64,000 bases of DNA from Terriglobales bacterium (GTDB lineage: Bacteria; Acidobacteriota; Terriglobia; Terriglobales; Acidobacteriaceae): the NCBI GenBank assembly GCA_045808065.1, contig JBJMGD010000011.1:128577-192576 (forward strand), in the 5' to 3' direction. Both the position numbers and the translations under genes were made by a program. Below are positions 4,967 through 41,859 of the stretch, one piece after another. The notes under the pieces were generated by a model that was given only the letters and a program-made list of their open reading frames with translations, had not been told where the DNA came from and made no database searches. The number at the start of each line of letters is the position of its first letter. The first letter of the stretch is position 1.

Positions 4967-5133
4967 TTGAACCACGGAGGCAGGGAGACACGGAGAACAG
5001 CCTGGAAGAATTGTGGGGCGCGTTTCTTCTCCCCGACATGTTGAATCCACTCTTCTCGCCCCCAGGTTGGATCCACTCTGATTCGTTCGTTCCTGCCCTG
5101 CCTTTCTCCGTGACTCCGTGCCTCAGTGGCGAA
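4967..5133. repeat. REP/MITE-like inverted-repeat element of the CACGGAG family (copy 2), a likely bidirectional terminator
   Basis: The left arm is TTGAACCACGGAGGCAGGGAGACACGGAGAACAG (4967-5000). The right arm CCTGCCCTGCCTTTCTCCGTGACTCCGTGCCTCAGTGGCGAA (5092-5133) has the reverse complement TTCGCCACTGAGGCACGGAGTCACGGAGAAAGGCAGGG. The element sits between the convergent tlpA-like gene and copA. Confidence 0.75.
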
Positions 5134-34393: not shown

Positions 34394-34963
34394 ATGGCAG
34401 ACGATCTGAACGGTTTACGTGTGGCGGTGTTGCTTACCGACGGAGTTGAAGAACCCGAATTTGTGAAGCCGAAAGAAGCTCTAGAGAAAGCGGGAGCAAA
34501 GGTGAGCGTGATTTCTCCCAAAGGCGGAGATATCCAATCTTTTCAGCATCACGACAAATCGAACAAGTACAAGGCGGACCGCACACTCGACCAGGTTCAC
34601 GCGGATGAATTCGACGCGCTTTTGCTCCCAGGCGGAGCGTTGAATGCGGATGCGTTGCGAGTCGAAACTAAGGCACAACAATTCGCAAAAGCTATCGATC
34701 AGGCGGGCAAGCCCATCGCCGTGATTTGTCACGCACCCTGGCTGCTGGTTTCGAGCGGCCTGCTCCGCGGACGTAAGATCACGAGCTTCCACACTATTCA
34801 GGACGATCTCCGCAACGCAGGCGCCGATTGGCAGGACTCAGAGGTCGTGGTCGACCGGAATTGGGTCAGCAGCCGCAAACCTGACGACATTCCAGCATTT
34901 AATCGAGAGATGCTTAAGCTCTTCGCGCAGGCAAGCGGAGCACAAAGTCGGAAGATCGCCTGA
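34394..34963 (+). CDS. DJ-1/PfpI family protein (PfpI-type glutamine-amidotransferase-like peptidase/deglycase)
   Basis: 189 aa. It has LLPGG and the nucleophile elbow AVICHAPWLL, with a C-terminal VVDRNWVSSRKPDDIPAF. Confidence 0.9.
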   Translation: MADDLNGLRVAVLLTDGVEEPEFVKPKEALEKAGAKVSVISPKGGDIQSFQHHDKSNKYKADRTLDQVHADEFDALLLPGGALNADALRVETKAQQFAKAIDQAGKPIAVICHAPWLLVSSGLLRGRKITSFHTIQDDLRNAGADWQDSEVVVDRNWVSSRKPDDIPAFNREMLKLFAQASGAQSRKIA

Positions 34964-35031
34964 TCTCAATTTACGACGAGCATGTGCGATGAGCGATTTA
35001 CATCCTTCCTACTTCCGAATAAGGAGTTCTT

Positions 35032-36261
35032 ATGAAAGCAGTAGTTTTTCACGGCATCGGCGATATTCGCCTTGATAATGTGGCGGAACCAAAGATTCAG
35101 AAACCAAATGACGCAATAGTCAGACTGACGGCAAGTGCCATCTGCGGCACCGACCTGCACATGATCCGCGGAACGATGGCAGGAATGAAATCGGGAACGA
35201 TTCTCGGCCATGAAGGAGTGGGCATTGTAGAAGAAGTTGGGAACGCAGTACGCAATTTACAGCCCGGCGATCGCGTCGTGATTCCGTCGACCATCGCGTG
35301 CGGCAATTGCTCGTACTGCCGATCCGGCTACTACGCGCAATGCGACAAAGCTAATCCTAATGGGCCCGATGCAGGCACCGCATTCTTCGGCGGCCCGGCC
35401 AACAGTGGACCATTCCACGGCCTGCAGGCTGAGTACGCGCGCATTCCTTTCGCCAACATCGGATTGGTGAAGCTTCCAGATGGTGTTTCGGACAGTCAGA
35501 TGCTTCTGCTTTCAGACATTGCTCCCACAGCGTGGATGGCGGCCGAACTGGCGGAGATTAGGCCGGGGAACACCGTCGCGGTGTTCGGTTGTGGGCCCGT
35601 CGGTCAATTCGTGATCGCCAGCGCAAAGCTCATGAATGCTGGACGCATTTTCGCCATCGACACGATCAAGTCTCGGCTGCAGATGGCGCAGGAACAAGGC
35701 GCGGAGATAATCGACTTCAACGCTGAAGATCCGGTCGAGGCGTTGAAGGGCTTCACGGGCGGCATTGGCGTGGATCGCGTCATCGACGCGGTTGGCGTGG
35801 ACGCAAATCATCCGCATCATGGCGCAGGCGCAAAAAAAGCATGGCTCAAAACGCCCAAGAACCGCATGGAACAGAAGATGGTCGCACCAAAGACCAACAC
35901 TGCTAATGGAAACTGGCATCCAGGCGACGCTCCCTCACAGGTGCTCACGTGGGCCACGGAGGCAATCGCCAAAGCGGGAACACTGTCAATTATCGGAGTC
36001 TATCCCGAAACGGCGCAGAGCTTCCCGATTGGCGCTGCGATGAACAAGAACCTGACTCTCAAAATGGGAAACTGTAACCATCGCAAGTACATTCCCATGC
36101 TGATCGAGAAGGTGCAGAGCGGAGTTCTTGATCCCGAGAAGGTGCTCACGCAAGTGGAACCGATGACGAGTGTGCTTGATGCATACAAAGCTTTTGACAC
36201 TCGCCAGCCCGGTTGGGTGAAGGTCAAGCTGGAACCATCGGCGCCAAGAATAGCCGCTTGA
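35032..36261 (+). CDS. Zinc-dependent medium-chain alcohol/formaldehyde dehydrogenase
   Basis: 409 aa. It has AICGTDLH, GHEGVGIVEEVG, the structural-Zn motif CGNCSYCRSGYYAQC and the Rossmann motif VFGCGPVG. It resembles glutathione-independent formaldehyde dehydrogenases. Confidence 0.9.
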   Translation: MKAVVFHGIGDIRLDNVAEPKIQKPNDAIVRLTASAICGTDLHMIRGTMAGMKSGTILGHEGVGIVEEVGNAVRNLQPGDRVVIPSTIACGNCSYCRSGYYAQCDKANPNGPDAGTAFFGGPANSGPFHGLQAEYARIPFANIGLVKLPDGVSDSQMLLLSDIAPTAWMAAELAEIRPGNTVAVFGCGPVGQFVIASAKLMNAGRIFAIDTIKSRLQMAQEQGAEIIDFNAEDPVEALKGFTGGIGVDRVIDAVGVDANHPHHGAGAKKAWLKTPKNRMEQKMVAPKTNTANGNWHPGDAPSQVLTWATEAIAKAGTLSIIGVYPETAQSFPIGAAMNKNLTLKMGNCNHRKYIPMLIEKVQSGVLDPEKVLTQVEPMTSVLDAYKAFDTRQPGWVKVKLEPSAPRIAA

Positions 36262-36370
36262 AAGCGGTCAGCTGTCAGGAGCCAGTCTTTCAATGATTAG
36301 GATCGGGACATCGGCTTCCATTGTGGGGTGCCAAAGCCACACAAAGGTGAAGGCGCCGAAATATTTTTTT

Positions 36371-36502
36371 GATCCCGACTTCTAAAGGACTTAGCTCACG
36401 AGATCCCGACTTGATCCCGAACTTGTCCGTTGTTCGCTCGGGATCGCTTCGGGACCCGGTCGGGATCGAATCCCAACCTAGGTTCGGGATCACGTCGGGA
36501 TC
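36371..36502. repeat. Phased 8/9-mer array GATCCCGA / TCGGGATC
   Basis: GATCCCGA(C/A) occurs at 36371, 36402 and 36413 on the top strand. Its reverse complement YTCGGGAYC occurs at 36437, 36448, 36459, 36483 and 36494, mostly in 11-bp steps. Related copies lie at 36301 and 36592. Confidence 0.85.
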
Positions 36503-36649
36503 TTCGAAGTTGAGCGCCGAACGGGGCGTGGTGGCGAGAGAACCCATGTCGAGAGTGCAGGACGCGCCGGAAAGGTCGGCGCTCCAAGTCCGATCCCACA
36601 TTGCGAGATTTGGGCGAGCCGTAGTTCATTTCTTGCACAACACCCATGG

Positions 36650-36716
36650 ATACCCATTGGGTATCCGGGAAATACCCGTCGGGTATACCGCGTATACCCG
36701 GAGTACCCTGGGGTAT
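36650..36716. repeat. Three 22-bp-phased palindromes ATACCC-N3-GGGTAT
   Basis: ATACCCATTGGGTAT lies at 36650-36664 and ATACCCGTCGGGTAT at 36672-36686. A distorted third unit, ATACCCGGAGTACCCTGGGGTAT, lies at 36694-36716. GGGTATAC-CGC-GTATACCC links units 2 and 3. Confidence 0.85.
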
Positions 36717-36737
36717 TACTGCGGATAGGATTGCTCT

Positions 36738-36800
36738 AGTTTGGCAGCGACAGAGTTTGGCAGCGACAGAGTTTGGCAATGACAGTTTGGCGACGACGAG
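36738..36800 (+). repeat. Tandem 16-bp direct repeat AGTTTGGCAGCGACAG (about 3.9 copies)
   Basis: Copies lie at 36738-36753, 36754-36769 and 36770-36785 (AGTTTGGCAATGACAG). A truncated TTTGGCGACGACGAG lies at 36786-36800. Confidence 0.9.
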
Positions 36801-37041
36801 CCATGCCCGCGACGGGTAAATGGTAGCGGCGGGCTCTTAGGCGCGCAATCCCATTTCGGTATGGTTCCAATCCATACATCCGACCTCAACGCTAACGCAG
36901 ACAGAACAAGAAAAGCAATGTTCATCCGTTGTTCTAACAATTTTCTGGTCGAGCGAAATCAGGACGTTGCGGCGAAGAAAAAAAATATGTTCGCAATCCG
37001 TTGCTCTGAAGCCGATGCCCCGATACGAAGCACAGACGACT

Positions 37042-37085
37042 GACAACCGATGGCTGGCAACCGAGAACCCACAACTGACAACTGC
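37042..37085 (+). repeat. Short direct repeats RRCAACYGM just upstream of purQ (possible operator)
   Basis: GACAACCGA (37042), GGCAACCGA (37056), CACAACTGA (37070) and GACAACTGC (37077) are spaced 14/14/7 bp apart. The array ends 35 nt before the purQ ATG. Confidence 0.6.
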
Positions 37086-37119
37086 TCACTTCCAGCAATG
37101 TTAAACTGAAGCTACTTCC

Positions 37120-37815
37120 ATGAAATTCGGCGTTCTCGTCTTCCCTGGTTCGAATTGCGATCACGATGCCTACTATGCGATCGAAACCGCGGCCAGGCAG
37201 CCAGTCACGTTCCTGTGGCATGCCAGCCATGATCTCGAGAACTGCGATGCCATCGTGGTCCCGGGCGGTTTCGCTTATGGCGATTATCTCCGCACAGGTG
37301 CAATTGCAAAGTTCGCTCCGATAATGCAAGAGGTTGGCCGATTTGCCGCTGCTGGTGGCCTGGTGCTTGGCATCTGCAATGGCTTCCAGATCTTGTGCGA
37401 GGCCGGACTTCTTCCTGGCGCCCTGTTGCGAAATGCAGGCTTAAAGTATGTTTGCAAGCCAGTGCACTTGCGTGTGGAGAGTACCGATACGCCTTTTACG
37501 AATGAGTGCAACGACGGTGAGGTGCTTGAAATTCCGATCGGGCACATGGAAGGCAATTATTTCTGCGCTCCTGATACTCTCACGCAACTCAAGCGTGACC
37601 ACCGCATCATTTTTCGCTATTCGGACGCCCAAGGCCGCATGTCGCCGGAAGCAAACCCAAACGGGTCCATCGACAACATCGCGGGTATTTGCAATGAAGG
37701 ACGCAACGTACTCGGCATGATGCCTCATCCCGATCGCAGTGCTGATCCGCTTCTGGGAATGAATGACGGCCTCAAGATCTTCGAGTCCATGGTTGGGGCC
37801 CTCGCGCACAAATAG
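37120..37815 (+). CDS. purQ: Phosphoribosylformylglycinamidine synthase, glutaminase subunit PurQ
   Basis: 231 aa. It has [16 protein letters not shown], the catalytic Cys in [10 protein letters not shown] and C-terminal MPHPDR. No purS or purL gene is adjacent. Confidence 0.95.
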
Positions 37816-37818
37816 CAC

Positions 37819-38127
37819 ATGGATCGTTTATCGATGCTCCAAGGGGTTCTCGCGCAAAATCCTGGCGATCCATTCGCGCGCTACGGTTTGGCAATGGAGC
37901 ACGTCAACAGAGGGGACACTGCTACTGCCCTCGCGGAGTTCGCGAAACTGCTGGAACTGAACCCCGAATACACGCCTGGTTATCAGATGGCAGCGCAGAC
38001 TCTGATAAAAGAAGGCCGCGATGAGGAAGCGCGCAAGATGCTGGAGAACGGCATCTCCTGCGCAATGCGAAGCGGCAATCAGCATGCTCGCTCCGAAATG
38101 GAAGCGTTGCTCGACGATTTGCGGTAG
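37819..38127 (+). CDS. Small TPR-like protein (102 aa)
   Basis: It starts 4 nt after purQ. The helical repeat pattern includes DPFARYGLAMEHVNRGDTATALAEFAKLLELNPEYTPGYQMAAQTL. Confidence 0.6.
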   Translation: MDRLSMLQGVLAQNPGDPFARYGLAMEHVNRGDTATALAEFAKLLELNPEYTPGYQMAAQTLIKEGRDEEARKMLENGISCAMRSGNQHARSEMEALLDDLR

Positions 38128-38173
38128 TCTGCTCAGCTAACTCAAATTCGCCCAGAAACGGAAAATCGAGGGA

Positions 38174-40219
38174 ATGAGATTCTTCGCTCTGATACTTGTG
38201 TTCGCCGCCGCTTCGTTACTCAATGCTCAACCTTCACCTTCTAGCTCTTCCCCACAAGGCCCGCCTTGGAATCTGATGCCGGTTCCGGCAAAGCTCCAAC
38301 CCGGCACGGGCCAGTGGAGCGTGCAGCAAGGGCTCAGGATTTCCTTGGCTGGATCAGATGATCCTCGCGTTCGCAATGCTGCCGAGCGCTTCGTCGAGCA
38401 TCTGTCGCGCGCAACAGGTATTCCACTGCGCTATCAATCGGCTGAGAGTGCCAATGCCGCCATCGCGATCCGCTGTGAGCACTCCGGTGATAAAGTGCAG
38501 AAACTCGGTGAAGATGAATCTTATGTCCTCGACGTTTCCGATGCGGGGGTAAAGCTTTCTGCGCGCAATCCTCTCGGCGTCATCCATGGATTGCAGACGT
38601 TACTTCAACTGGTGGCACCGAGTGCTCAAGGTTTCGCAGCGCCTGCTGTCCACATCGAAGACACTCCACGCTTTCCCTGGCGTGGACTTCTGCTTGACTC
38701 CTGCCGCCACTGGATGCCGGTAGACGTCGTGAAACGCACACTCGACGGCATGGAAGCCGTGAAGATGAATGTGCTGCACTTTCACCTCAGCGAATACCAG
38801 GCTTTTCGAGTGGAGAGCAAGAAGTTCCCCAAACTGCAGGAGATGGGGTCGGAGGGGCACTACTACACGCAAGACGAGATCAAAGAATTGATTGCTTACG
38901 CCCGCGATCGTGGCATCCGCGTTATACCGGAGTTCGATATGCCCGGACATAGCACAAGCTGGTTCGTCGGCTATCCGGAGCTGGCCTCAGGACCAGGTCC
39001 CTACGAACTCGACAAGCAGTGGGGGGTCTTCGATCCGGCGATGGACCCGACCAAGGAATCCACATACAAATTCCTCGATAAGTTCATTGGCGAAATGGCG
39101 GAGCTTTTTTCCGACGACTTCTTTCACCTTGGCGGCGACGAGGTGAATGGCAAGCAGTGGGACGCGAATCCTGAAATTCAGAGATTCATGAAGTCTCACA
39201 GCTTGAAGACCAACGACGATCTCCAAACCTACTTCAATCAGCACGTTGTGAAAATCATTCAAAAATACAAGAAGACGCCGGTGGGCTGGGATGAAGTGTT
39301 AACGCCCGATTTGCCCAAGGATGTGGTCGTCCAGTCATGGCGTGGGCCGCAATCAGAAGCCAAGGCCGTACAGGAGGGGCATCGCGCGCTTCTATCAAAT
39401 GGCTACTATCTTGACCTGGCTCAATCGGCAGAGAAGCATTACCTTGTCGATCCGCTGGGCGGCGATGCAGCTCAGCTTTCGCCCGAGCAACAAAAGATGA
39501 TTCTCGGTGGGGAAGCCTGCATGTGGTCTGAGATGGTAAGCGTTGAGAACGTGGATTCGCGCATTTGGCCCCGAAATGCTGCAATCGCTGAAAGGTTGTG
39601 GTCACCCGCAGAGGTTCGCGATGTGAACTCAATGTACGAACGAATGCAGGTACTAAGCGAGCGTCTCGACACCCTGGGACTCACGCACCACTCGGGTTTG
39701 CGCATGATGCAGGAAAGGCTCGCTCTCGAGCATGTCGATGCTTTGCGAGTTCTGGGCAACGTGGTCGAGCCAGCAAAGGGCTATGCGCGGGTTAGTGGCC
39801 ATAAGTACAACACGGAGTCTCCGCTCAACGGTCTTCCCGATTCGGTACCGCCAGAGAGTTTGGGAGCTCGAAAGTTCTCTCTGCTGGTGGACAAGATTAT
39901 CGCTGGCAATGCTTCTCCGGATGAGCTCGCTTCGGCTAGAGAGCTGATGGGTACGTGGAAATCCAATTACGACCGACTGTCGCCCGCATTGCAAAACTCT
40001 TTGCTGACGGACGATACAGTCGTGTCACAGAACCTCGTGACAGCGGGAAACATCGGATTGCAGGCGCTCGATATGTTCGGCACACATGCATCTGCTCCCG
40101 CCGGCTGGTCCGACCAGCAGATGGAACAGCTCGAGCAGATAAAAAAACCGCAGGCGGAACTTCTTCTGATGGTAGTGCCGGCGGTGGAGAAACTCGTCCA
40201 AGCAGTGGGACGGCCATAA
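38174..40219 (+). CDS. Secreted GH20 beta-N-acetylhexosaminidase
   Basis: 681 aa with a signal peptide. It has RFPWRGLLLDSCRHW, VLHFHLSE, IPEFDMPGH and the catalytic HLGGDEV, plus the WSE/W pattern (GGEACMWSE). Confidence 0.9.
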   Translation: MRFFALILVFAAASLLNAQPSPSSSSPQGPPWNLMPVPAKLQPGTGQWSVQQGLRISLAGSDDPRVRNAAERFVEHLSRATGIPLRYQSAESANAAIAIRCEHSGDKVQKLGEDESYVLDVSDAGVKLSARNPLGVIHGLQTLLQLVAPSAQGFAAPAVHIEDTPRFPWRGLLLDSCRHWMPVDVVKRTLDGMEAVKMNVLHFHLSEYQAFRVESKKFPKLQEMGSEGHYYTQDEIKELIAYARDRGIRVIPEFDMPGHSTSWFVGYPELASGPGPYELDKQWGVFDPAMDPTKESTYKFLDKFIGEMAELFSDDFFHLGGDEVNGKQWDANPEIQRFMKSHSLKTNDDLQTYFNQHVVKIIQKYKKTPVGWDEVLTPDLPKDVVVQSWRGPQSEAKAVQEGHRALLSNGYYLDLAQSAEKHYLVDPLGGDAAQLSPEQQKMILGGEACMWSEMVSVENVDSRIWPRNAAIAERLWSPAEVRDVNSMYERMQVLSERLDTLGLTHHSGLRMMQERLALEHVDALRVLGNVVEPAKGYARVSGHKYNTESPLNGLPDSVPPESLGARKFSLLVDKIIAGNASPDELASARELMGTWKSNYDRLSPALQNSLLTDDTVVSQNLVTAGNIGLQALDMFGTHASAPAGWSDQQMEQLEQIKKPQAELLLMVVPAVEKLVQAVGRP

Positions 40220-41775: not shown

Positions 41776-41859
41776 GCAATAGGCAATAAGCGATAGGCAA
41801 TAGGCTCATTGAGCTCGGGCCGCTTGCTTATTGCCTATGGCATATCGCTTATTGCCTGC
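41776..41859. repeat. Inverted array of ATAGGCAAT 9-mers that forms a long imperfect hairpin (terminator or operator)
   Basis: ATAGGCAAT lies at 41779-41787 and 41793-41801. Its complement ATTGCCTAT lies at 41830-41838, with ATTGCCT at 41851-41857. GGCAATAAGCGATA (41782-41795) is perfectly complementary to TATCGCTTATTGCC (41843-41856). Confidence 0.7.

Follow-up and report, generated by a model that had tools for sequence, protein, structure and literature searches.

What is an 858-bp tract that holds no gene but a succession of short phased repeats, and does its host depend on it? This question is raised by the DNA between a zinc-type alcohol dehydrogenase gene (adh) and purQ in an uncultured Terriglobia acidobacterium, the tract being the longest gap without genes in the 64,000-nucleotide stretch analysed (hereafter the window). 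Related soil Acidobacteria form a narrow group of carriers. We examined the repeats, the junctions, the distribution and the divergence of the tract, and weighed the explanations that they permit.

The tract is a succession of short repeat blocks

The limits of the tract given in the initial annotation were confirmed by ORF and Pfam analyses: adh (409 aa, 35032–36261, plus strand; ADH_N 4.5e-26, ADH_zinc_N 3.6e-17) ends at 36261, and purQ (231 aa, 37120–37815, plus strand; GATase_5 9.9e-40), whose homologues are named PurQ in the sources, starts at 37120, followed after 3 nt by a 102-aa TPR gene. By their Pfam domains, the genes around the tract encode TPR, DJ-1, ADH, PurQ, TPR, GH20 and SDR proteins. 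The proposed succession of repeat blocks, several of them phased at 11 or 22 bp, also held up and is mostly non-random. The first block (36371–36503) comprises three forward and five reverse GATCCCGA units, one of the latter degenerate, spaced by 11 bp within each sub-cluster. The exact 8-mer lies forward at 36371, 36402 and 36413, bearing out what had been annotated, and reversed at 36438, 36460, 36484 and 36495, with the degenerate copy TTCGGGACC at 36448. Half of its 14 exact matches in the window fall inside these 132 bp, against an expectation of 3.6 for the whole 64 kb. In relatives, a fourth forward copy gives rise to the perfect 20-nt palindrome GGTCGGGATCGATCCCGACC.

The second block, a 9-bp inverted repeat (GAGCGCCGA / TCGGCGCTC, 36512–36584) with its arms 55 nt apart, is present but no more than chance would give: a random sequence should have some two perfect 9-nt inverted pairs in every kb, the tract has several others, and the pair is not maintained, with one-sided changes and no compensation in two relatives (L166 and L167). 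The third (36640–36717) is built of 22-bp units on ATACCC-N3-GGGTAT, with ATACCC half-sites about every 11 bp; of the three palindromes claimed, those at 36650 and 36672 are exact and the last is degenerate, TRF reporting a period of 22, 2.3 copies and 80% matches. The fourth (36738–36799) is, as had been proposed, a tandem repeat of the 16-bp unit AGTTTGGCAGCGACAG, with two perfect copies and copies at 88% and 75%, and its copy number varies. Within the window, the third-block palindrome and the 16-mer are both confined to the tract. The direct repeat of the fifth block (36918–37007), ATCCGTTGYTCT at 36924–36935 and 36996–37007, has only these two exact copies in the window, each of them after an A-run, but the ATGTTC part ascribed to it is lost in relatives. 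In the sixth, RRCAACYGM is exact at 37042, 37056 and 37077, while a supposed fourth copy departs from the motif in its first base; the block's units, GACAACCGA, GGCAACCGA and GACAACTGC, lie inside 37026–37096.

Most of the tract was inserted into the loop of an ancestral hairpin

Almost the entire tract is enclosed by a 25-nt inverted repeat (36294–36318 / 37008–37032, 84%), overlooked in the initial annotation, whose 21 matches out of 25 exceed the best of 200 shuffles (19). In the lineage L183–L187, the spacer between the same two genes carries these arms as an intact hairpin (11-bp stem, 9-nt loop; −12.9 kcal/mol, z = −5.5), whereas in the window they lie about 690 nt apart (689–690). Thus, 36318–37007 was inserted within the loop of the hairpin. 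The alignment of the L183–L187 spacer agrees: it matches the window only at 36271–36317, with 85% identity, at 37007–37020 and at 37097–37119. The left part of the ancestral backbone accordingly covers 36262–36317 (plus strand) and ends with the left hairpin arm GATCGGGACATCGGCTT (about 36301–36317, plus strand), and the right arm GAAGCCGATGCCCCGAT (37008–37025, plus strand) includes an exact 14-nt match to the L183 spacer. The 690 bp between them are a non-coding, clade-specific insert absent from L183–L187. A second clade-specific segment of 71 bp (37026–37096, plus strand), which contains the sixth block, is missing from the same lineage; its 3′ part CAACTGCTCAC resembles by eye the spacers of L169 and L189 and so may be ancestral sequence that was deleted in L183, although all-against-all blastn returned no match between the L169/L189 spacers and the tract.

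The left boundary of the insert is unsettled between 36318 and 36339, the latter (an insert of 669 bp) applying if AAGCC, present at 36334–36338 and 37009–37013 and once at the empty site of L183, represents a target duplication of 5 bp; so short a match may be fortuitous. The left junction varies between sub-lineages, by a 22-nt difference and clustered small indels, and in L165 a different left flank is joined at about 36340. A subterminal inverted repeat of 14–15 nt, CGAA(C)ATATTTTTTT, lies near both ends, its left copy CGAAATATTTTTTT at 36357–36370 being 18 or 39 nt inside the insert, depending on the left end chosen, and its partner at 36979–36993, within the fifth block, 14 nt inside; the outermost insert ends align poorly. 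Local alignment of the two ends scored 23, a value reached by 3 of 2000 shuffles.

Such junctions could be read as the repair of a break in the loop of a fragile hairpin, at which filler DNA was joined in by end joining or template switching and slippage built the arrays later. The breakpoint in the loop, the insert seen so far as a single copy, its weak termini, the further small indels at the left junction and arrays that change unit by unit would all suit this explanation. We nevertheless regard it as unlikely, in view of the symmetric subterminal inverted repeats near both ends, AAGCC at both junctions and an L165 rearrangement that starts right where the left end is presumed to lie; a donor sequence was not found either.

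The insert is restricted to one shallow clade

All carriers of the tract belong to one shallow clade, with purQ and TPR gene DNA at most 5% apart. In the tree they are monophyletic, L183–L187 are their sister, and a lineage with a 441–448-bp spacer falls outside both. Absence from close relatives, which the initial annotation had itself named as an argument against its reading, was found in this sister lineage, where the 690 and 71 bp are both missing from a 100-bp spacer, that is, an empty site, although purQ is 95% identical in amino acids and the order DJ-1–adh–purQ–TPR is kept. The placement of adh upstream of purQ is common to the lineages with 100-bp, 441–448-bp and ∼850-bp spacers. The 441–448-bp spacer of the next lineage out is unrelated and holds a small inverted-repeat element of another kind. 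Spacers of a sister clade also contain further small inverted-repeat elements, and the clade's TGTCATCCTGAGC element was not found in the window. Lineages with purQ 86–94% identical in amino acids have spacers unrelated to the tract, and among GTDB genomes and JGI metagenome contigs collected through purQ, relatives with purQ identity of 75% or less showed neither synteny nor tract similarity. An assembly artefact was rejected, the same structure having been assembled independently in many samples. Several contigs terminate inside the tract. JGI samples of the 33000368xx series contain both states of the site, empty in L183–L186 and filled in L188.

Besides the hairpin, the only spacer segment in common with L183 is the purQ-proximal 37097–37119 (plus strand), which contains an extended −10-like motif, namely TG (37099–37100), one base and TAAACT (37102–37107), 12 nt upstream of the ATG; the pattern TGnTA(A/G)ACT is retained in L169 and L172. 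purQ is probably transcribed from this conserved extended −10 next to its start codon. Since an extended −10 needs no particular upstream sequence, such a promoter would explain how spacers of 100, 441–448 and ∼850 bp could replace one another.

The arrays change by whole units and the insert drifts

Compared with L175, the insert is 10.0% diverged (64/637), against 13.8% at 4-fold sites of purQ, 12.2% at those of the TPR gene and 21.5% at 4-fold sites overall, so that its substitutions run at roughly the local synonymous rate. The carriers are all within about 5% of each other, which leaves little power for tests of selection or covariation. Indels between carriers are mostly whole repeat units, and the arrays themselves gain and lose units in this way: ATACCC occurs three times in the window versus 7–8 times in most other carriers, with unit indels of 12 to 22 bp, and GTTTGGC, the motif of the 16-bp unit, four times in the window, three times in L003 and L004 and once or twice elsewhere. 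L003 and L004, 98–99% identical to the window, are short of one 16-bp unit.

Block 1 is the least diverged, with 5.3% versus L175 against about 13% at neighbouring 4-fold sites, and in a tally of the alignment made by eye, changes in its motif cores are about half as frequent as in the spacers between them. This would fit some constraint, such as putative protein binding. It raises the possibility of a functional array in which one or more DNA-binding proteins would cooperatively bind GATCCCGA, ATACCC and the 16-bp units as operators, iterons or a centromere-like site; having perhaps arrived together with the insert, these might today influence purQ or adh, or serve as a decoy. Beyond the low divergence, the 11- and 22-bp spacing, the units in both orientations, the invariance of copies a2, a3 and b1 across the aligned carriers that cover block 1, and the perfect 20-nt palindrome kept by relatives all speak for it. 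Against it, the entire insert is missing in a sister lineage of identical gene order, the motifs cluster nowhere else in the 64 kb, copy numbers vary between near-identical strains, several motif cores carry mutations in individual lineages, and no similarity to plasmids or phages was found. The Pfam domains of the neighbours and the ORFs of the tract also revealed no rep or par gene beside it, in keeping with the initial annotation, and no adjoining regulator gene. We therefore consider a functional binding array improbable; of the original reading, the non-coding phased repeats stand, while the protein-binding hub of iterons, parS sites or operators gains no support.

The tract is non-coding and no RNA is supported

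The tract does not encode protein. Searches of its ORFs against Pfam, NCBIfam and PHROG returned no family, indels of 16, 22, 4, 2 and 1 bp break the frames in relatives, and all six homologue clusters that were traced to contigs lie beside purQ, supporting the earlier remark that the ORFs called here are driven by repeats. A decayed protein-coding gene between adh and purQ might be suspected from the overlapping minus-strand ORFs of 103, 127 and 74 aa and from the 'hypothetical proteins' of 85–176 aa that public pipelines call here. Such a pseudogene is extremely improbable, given the lack of any family, a composition dominated by short DNA repeats, and database relatives that are solely ORFs of the purQ locus aligning in shifting frames.

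A gene for a structured ncRNA, or a long 5′ leader that regulates purQ, is suggested by the position of the tract immediately ahead of purQ on the same strand and by its many palindromes, which permit strong folding (MFE z = −2.0 on the plus and −2.7 on the minus strand for 36355–36600). However, Rfam gave no match at gathering score, the best hit being a miRNA model at E = 0.79 amid noise up to E = 10, and folding of the alignment yielded covariation terms of +3.84 and −0.34 with the variable pairs mostly broken. Changes of unit number would moreover disrupt a defined fold, and the sister lineage does without the tract; this explanation is thus already weakly refuted and in our view very improbable. 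A purS remnant or pur riboswitch was discarded, as relatives have purQ alone with short spacers and Rfam was empty, and so was a replication origin, the tract being absent in the sister lineage, with no dnaA nearby and both flanking genes on the same strand. Only a weak DnaA-box-like sequence was seen in the tract by eye. The resemblance of CCCGAAC to the B. subtilis PurBox or the E. coli PUR-box is partial.

The insert was not encountered a second time in the window, in 192 loci (1.16 Mb) or in ORF-proxy searches of 5.8 billion proteins. By blastn, phages and 72,556 plasmids had no similarity to the tract, and a pattern scan of viral contigs gave no match. Nor did the tract match any known IS, MITE or att region, and matches in the window to the target hairpin, considered as a dispersed REP, were at chance level.

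Comparison with known repeat and mobile elements

MITEs and other non-autonomous IS derivatives resemble the insert in being short non-coding intergenic insertions that are present or absent among close lineages, with an empty site as in L183–L187, inverted repeats near the ends, here joined by a possible 5-bp target duplication and the rearranged L165 flank, and a spacer that a sister clade has filled with other small inverted-repeat elements. A typical MITE is multi-copy. The insert, unlike MITEs, is single-copy as judged from the window, the 192 loci and the ORF proxies, its repeats are subterminal and short, its interior consists of several phased arrays, no cognate transposase is found, and its 670–690 bp stand at the upper end of MITE size.

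For IS110/IS1111 elements, palindromic REP sequences serve as specific insertion sites, and no real target duplication arises. Set beside these elements and their separately mobile non-coding modules (seekRNA/bridge RNA), the insert is a non-coding sequence with subterminal inverted repeats that lies in a hairpin loop; its target is palindromic (9-nt loop, 11-bp stem), though no further copy of the hairpin occurs in the window. Neither the insert nor its neighbourhood in the window contains a DEDD transposase, and no RNA fold of the insert is supported. IS1111 members have subterminal inverted repeats of 11–13 bp with extensions of 7 bp on the left and 3 bp on the right (PMC11187229); the repeat length here is suitable, but the offsets are 18 or 39 nt and 14 nt. 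In ISPpu9, the ssr9 non-coding module can reportedly circularise and occupy REP sites by itself (PMC12288879). An IS91-type CTTG/GTTC target logic at the loop, by reading of the sequence, does not fit the junctions and was dropped.

Among bound arrays, the 11-bp repeats of R1 parC are bound by ParR, and iterons are bound by Rep. Plasmid centromere and iteron arrays share with the tract short direct and inverted units at helical-turn spacing, separate 16-bp direct repeats and A/T runs, but the tract lies on a chromosome beside no par or rep gene, appears dispensable and has unstable unit numbers. The insert could be an undescribed non-autonomous element that targets hairpin loops and carries phased binding-site arrays, a portable centromere, iteron or operator cassette that would recruit proteins of the host or of the element, with copy number tuned by slippage; we think this distinctly unlikely. 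VNTRs and minisatellites are matched by the head-to-tail 11-, 16- and 22-bp units and their copy-number polymorphism between strains, not by the mixed orientations of block 1 or by several unrelated arrays in one young insert. REP/BIME clusters likewise occupy spacers behind a gene with palindromic units whose orientation alternates, yet high-copy dispersed units did not appear in the 64-kb window. GTAG/CGTC tags have been described for REP superfamilies (PMC3733652), and by eye none was seen in the tract.

Discussion

We favour, with some reserve, the reading that the tract is a composite of an ancestral spacer and a single-copy, decaying insertion of a MITE-like element or of captured DNA, with arrays remodelled by slippage. 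The first ∼56 bp and the last ∼23 bp, together with the hairpin ATCGGGCATCG / CGATGCCCGAT, would come from a short ancestral adh–purQ spacer. One shallow clade within an uncultured group of Terriglobia species gained non-coding DNA of ∼690 (or 669) bp in the hairpin loop; this is most likely a mobile element of MITE-like, non-autonomous type or else a fragment captured from a foreign source. The insert would afterwards have drifted at roughly the local synonymous rate, while the 11-bp GATCCCGA, the 11/22-bp ATACCC and the 16-bp units were presumably gained and lost whole by slippage or template switching. We infer the mobile-element origin, the slippage and the lack of a host function from these patterns. 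The element-like features of the ends (the subterminal inverted repeat, the possible AAGCC duplication and the change of flank in L165 at about 36340) argue for a mobile origin; the single copy seen, the weak terminal repeats and the lack of a linked transposase argue against a MITE-like one, and slippage as sole cause would leave units in both orientations unexplained. Since its closest sister lineage does without it, the insert looks like a scar or passenger rather than an essential control region, and purQ would not depend on it.

When repeats phased to the helix fill a long gap without genes, a 'regulatory hub' or an 'origin/centromere' readily suggests itself, and caution is in order here: comparison with lineages only 5–12% away shows this tract to be a young insertion, apparently dispensable, in a spacer that turns over fast. 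To our knowledge, the small mobile elements of Acidobacteria have barely been catalogued. In uncultured members of this group, the locus offers a clean pair of sites, one empty and one filled by insertion into a hairpin loop, and the apparently self-sufficient extended −10 promoter of purQ suggests how such spacers are tolerated. If the arrays do bind proteins, the locus would show the birth and remodelling of such arrays.

A repeat-rich tract separates adh from purQ

The longest gene-free stretch within the 64-kb window, a tract at 36262–37119, is flanked by a zinc-type alcohol dehydrogenase gene (adh, 35032–36261, plus strand) and purQ (37120–37815, plus strand), the latter placing the window in Acidobacteriota, class Terriglobia. 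purQ (region 37120–38127) adjoins neither purS nor purL; the gene of a 102-aa TPR protein begins 3 nt after it and is followed by GH20, an order retained down to lineages with 86–87% identical PurQ. A small hairpin (36251–36267, CCGCT-TGAA-AGCGG) spans the adh stop codon, and in the related locus L166 it reads CCGCC...GGCGG, changed on both sides with the pairing kept.

Most of the repeats listed in the initial annotation proved real. GATCCCGA was found in seven exact copies and one degenerate copy within 132 bp, in both orientations and 11 bp apart inside each sub-cluster, with 3.6 matches expected by chance in the whole window; the 16-bp unit occurs about four times, and the direct repeat ATCCGTTGYTCT twice in the tract and nowhere else in the window. 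Of three claimed ATACCC-N3-GGGTAT palindromes, two are perfect and 22 bp apart and the third unit is degenerate; three RRCAACYGM copies match while a proposed fourth fails, and a 9-bp inverted repeat (block 2) does not exceed chance expectation. Overlooked there was a 25-nt inverted repeat (84%, 36294–36318/37008–37032), which brackets nearly the whole tract and which no shuffle of the region approached. The tract itself is genuine, non-coding and rich in repeats. Elsewhere in the window, spacer tandem repeats lie at 5025–5079 (26-bp unit ×2.1, TRF score 75) and 41776–41805 (7-bp unit GCAATAG ×4.3).

The tract is non-coding

The ORFs of the tract had zero matches in Pfam, NCBIfam and PHROGs; Rfam gave nothing at gathering scores and noise alone at E up to 10, and neither tRNA nor tmRNA was present. 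As a substitute for a DNA search, the pipeline-called 155-aa ORF was queried against 5.8 billion proteins and returned five clusters; all four clusters looked up adjoin purQ, and their ‘proteins’ align in shifting frames, the pattern given by conserved non-coding DNA. A second proxy of 60 aa, from the right part of the tract, yielded three clusters, the one looked up being again the adh-purQ locus. That the called ORFs are repeat-driven, as stated in the initial annotation, is supported by the lack of family matches, the shifting frames and a 16-bp indel, a length not divisible by three. When the two stretches with the highest conservation were folded from the alignment, covariation terms came to +3.84 and −0.34 and the majority of variable pairs were broken, lending no support to a structured RNA in what is a weak test at ∼5–10% divergence.

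One clade carries an insertion in a hairpin loop

Among the best species-representative genomes and the JGI metagenome contig set, purQ reached only 75% amino-acid identity, and these relatives had neither gene order nor tract similarity in common with the window, purQ standing alone behind short spacers. Close relatives were obtained via exact-protein look-ups: contigs L002–L004 carry the tract at 96–99.8% identity, L003 and L004 missing one 16-bp unit. A graded lineage series was drawn from purQ homologues and ordered by a neighbour-joining tree of purQ plus the TPR gene, whose DNA also gave the divergences. Tract carriers form one clade (≤5% among themselves) with an adh-purQ spacer of ∼830–860 bp; their sister lineage L183–L187 (6–8% from carriers) has the same DJ-1-adh-purQ-TPR order and a spacer of 100 bp; spacers measure 441–448 bp in L169/L189 (11–13%) and 332–334 bp in L172/L174 (∼25%, different upstream genes). 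Contigs L168 (left of window ∼36478), L181, L182, L004 and L167 end inside the tract or diverge in block 1, and in L167 blocks 3–4 are covered by a run of N; assemblies are broken at the tract by repeats or strain mixtures, and the flank in L168 may be chimeric.

Alignment between the 100-bp spacer and the window is confined to 36271–36317, 37007–37020 and 37097–37119. The spacer carries an intact hairpin, ATCGGGCATCG-CCTTGAAGC-CGATGCCCGAT (11-bp stem, −12.9 kcal/mol, z-score −5.5). The arms of this hairpin are also the arms of the long-range inverted repeat in the window, which places 36318–37007 (690 bp) inside the hairpin loop. Because complementary 11–18-nt arms 690 bp apart are not chance, and a deletion would leave a perfect hairpin only by precise excision, the tract core is an insertion either way. 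The tract is an insertion, confined to one clade, in the loop of a hairpin; its spacer turns over rapidly, and in the sister lineage the tract is dispensable. A further 71 bp (37026–37096, holding block 6) are likewise missing from the 100-bp lineage; they may be ancestral and then deleted in L183, since part of them resembles the L169/L189 spacer by eye, a match that blastn did not return.

Unit-wise remodelling and a putative purQ promoter

With L175 as the divergence reference, 4-fold degenerate sites differed by 13.8% in purQ, 12.2% in TPR, 20.3% in adh and 26.9% in GH20 (overall 21.5%), and the insert by 10.0% (64/637 aligned bases), with block 1 lowest at 5.3% and block 4 highest at 21%; comparison with four other carriers gave the same picture. 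The insert evolves no faster than synonymous sites and not clearly slower than adjacent genes, block 1 being a possible, slower exception. Along the locus (34394–40219) the 4-fold divergence varies from gene to gene, and the PurQ variant P0007 is 8 aa from the window and 8 aa from the P0014 lineage, which together suggest recombination mosaics among populations.

Indels in the insert are mostly whole repeat units: the 16-bp array has one unit more or less among relatives, the ATACCC units number three in the window versus 7–8 in most relatives, with gains of 12 to 22 bp, and relatives have an additional, fourth forward copy of GATCCCGA that completes a perfect palindrome of 20 nt. Unit-wise slippage is probably remodelling the tract. 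Protein-binding arrays, the idea of the initial annotation, found no positive support and are a less likely reading of blocks 1 and 3; absence from close relatives, named in the initial annotation as refuting it, is what the 100-bp spacer of L183–L187 displays.

Besides the hairpin, CAATGYTA(A/G)ACTGAA...ATG is the only spacer sequence common to the 100-, 441–448- and ∼850-bp forms. An extended −10-like motif, TGnTAAACT (37099–37107), precedes the purQ ATG by 12 nt and is retained even in L172. It is hypothesized to be an extended −10 promoter of purQ, a reading kept putative by a simple sigma-70 scan that found no promoter. Such a promoter would need no defined upstream partner, which would explain the free replacement of the spacer, and its position would imply a very short purQ leader.

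Spacers as landing sites for small insertions

Near the insert ends lies a subterminal inverted repeat, CGAA(C)ATATTTTTTT (36357–36370 and 36979–36993). AAGCC stands at each of the two junctions, with a single copy in the empty site, and could be a 5-bp target duplication, placing the left end at 36339. In L165 (reverse complement, bases 1–390), a tract-carrying lineage that has lost adh, an unrelated gene is joined by its 3′ end (C-terminus ...RADHLHFMDNVEELHEAV...) to the tract at ∼36340; this rearrangement begins right at the putative element end. Against a mobile element count the 22-nt difference between sub-lineages at the left junction, the unpaired outermost ends and the absence of a transposase with the insert. 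Searches of the window, of 1.16 Mb of fetched loci and of plasmids, phages and viral contigs turned up no other copy, which likewise speaks against such an element. IS1111-type elements target palindromes and bear subterminal repeats (PMC11187229), and ISPpu9 has non-coding modules able to move by themselves (PMC12288879), but the insert lacks the defining transposase and the 7/3-nt terminal offsets. We assign the tract to a known kind, a non-coding insertion that is MITE-like or captured and bears VNTR-type arrays.

The 441–448-bp spacers of the L169/L189 sister clade are unrelated to the tract and hold their own element of ∼170 bp (L169:3247–3408; L189:2240–2408), bounded by terminal inverted repeats of 36–39 nt that begin TGTCATCCTGAGC (AGATTGTCATCCTGAGCC...GGCTCAGGATGACAA). 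A second, similar element with TGTCATCC termini occupies the TPR-GH20 spacer of L189 (3626–3782); none was detected in the window. These elements look like members of a family, MITE/REPIN-like and dispersed, in these Acidobacteria, and small non-coding insertions evidently land in the spacers of this group.
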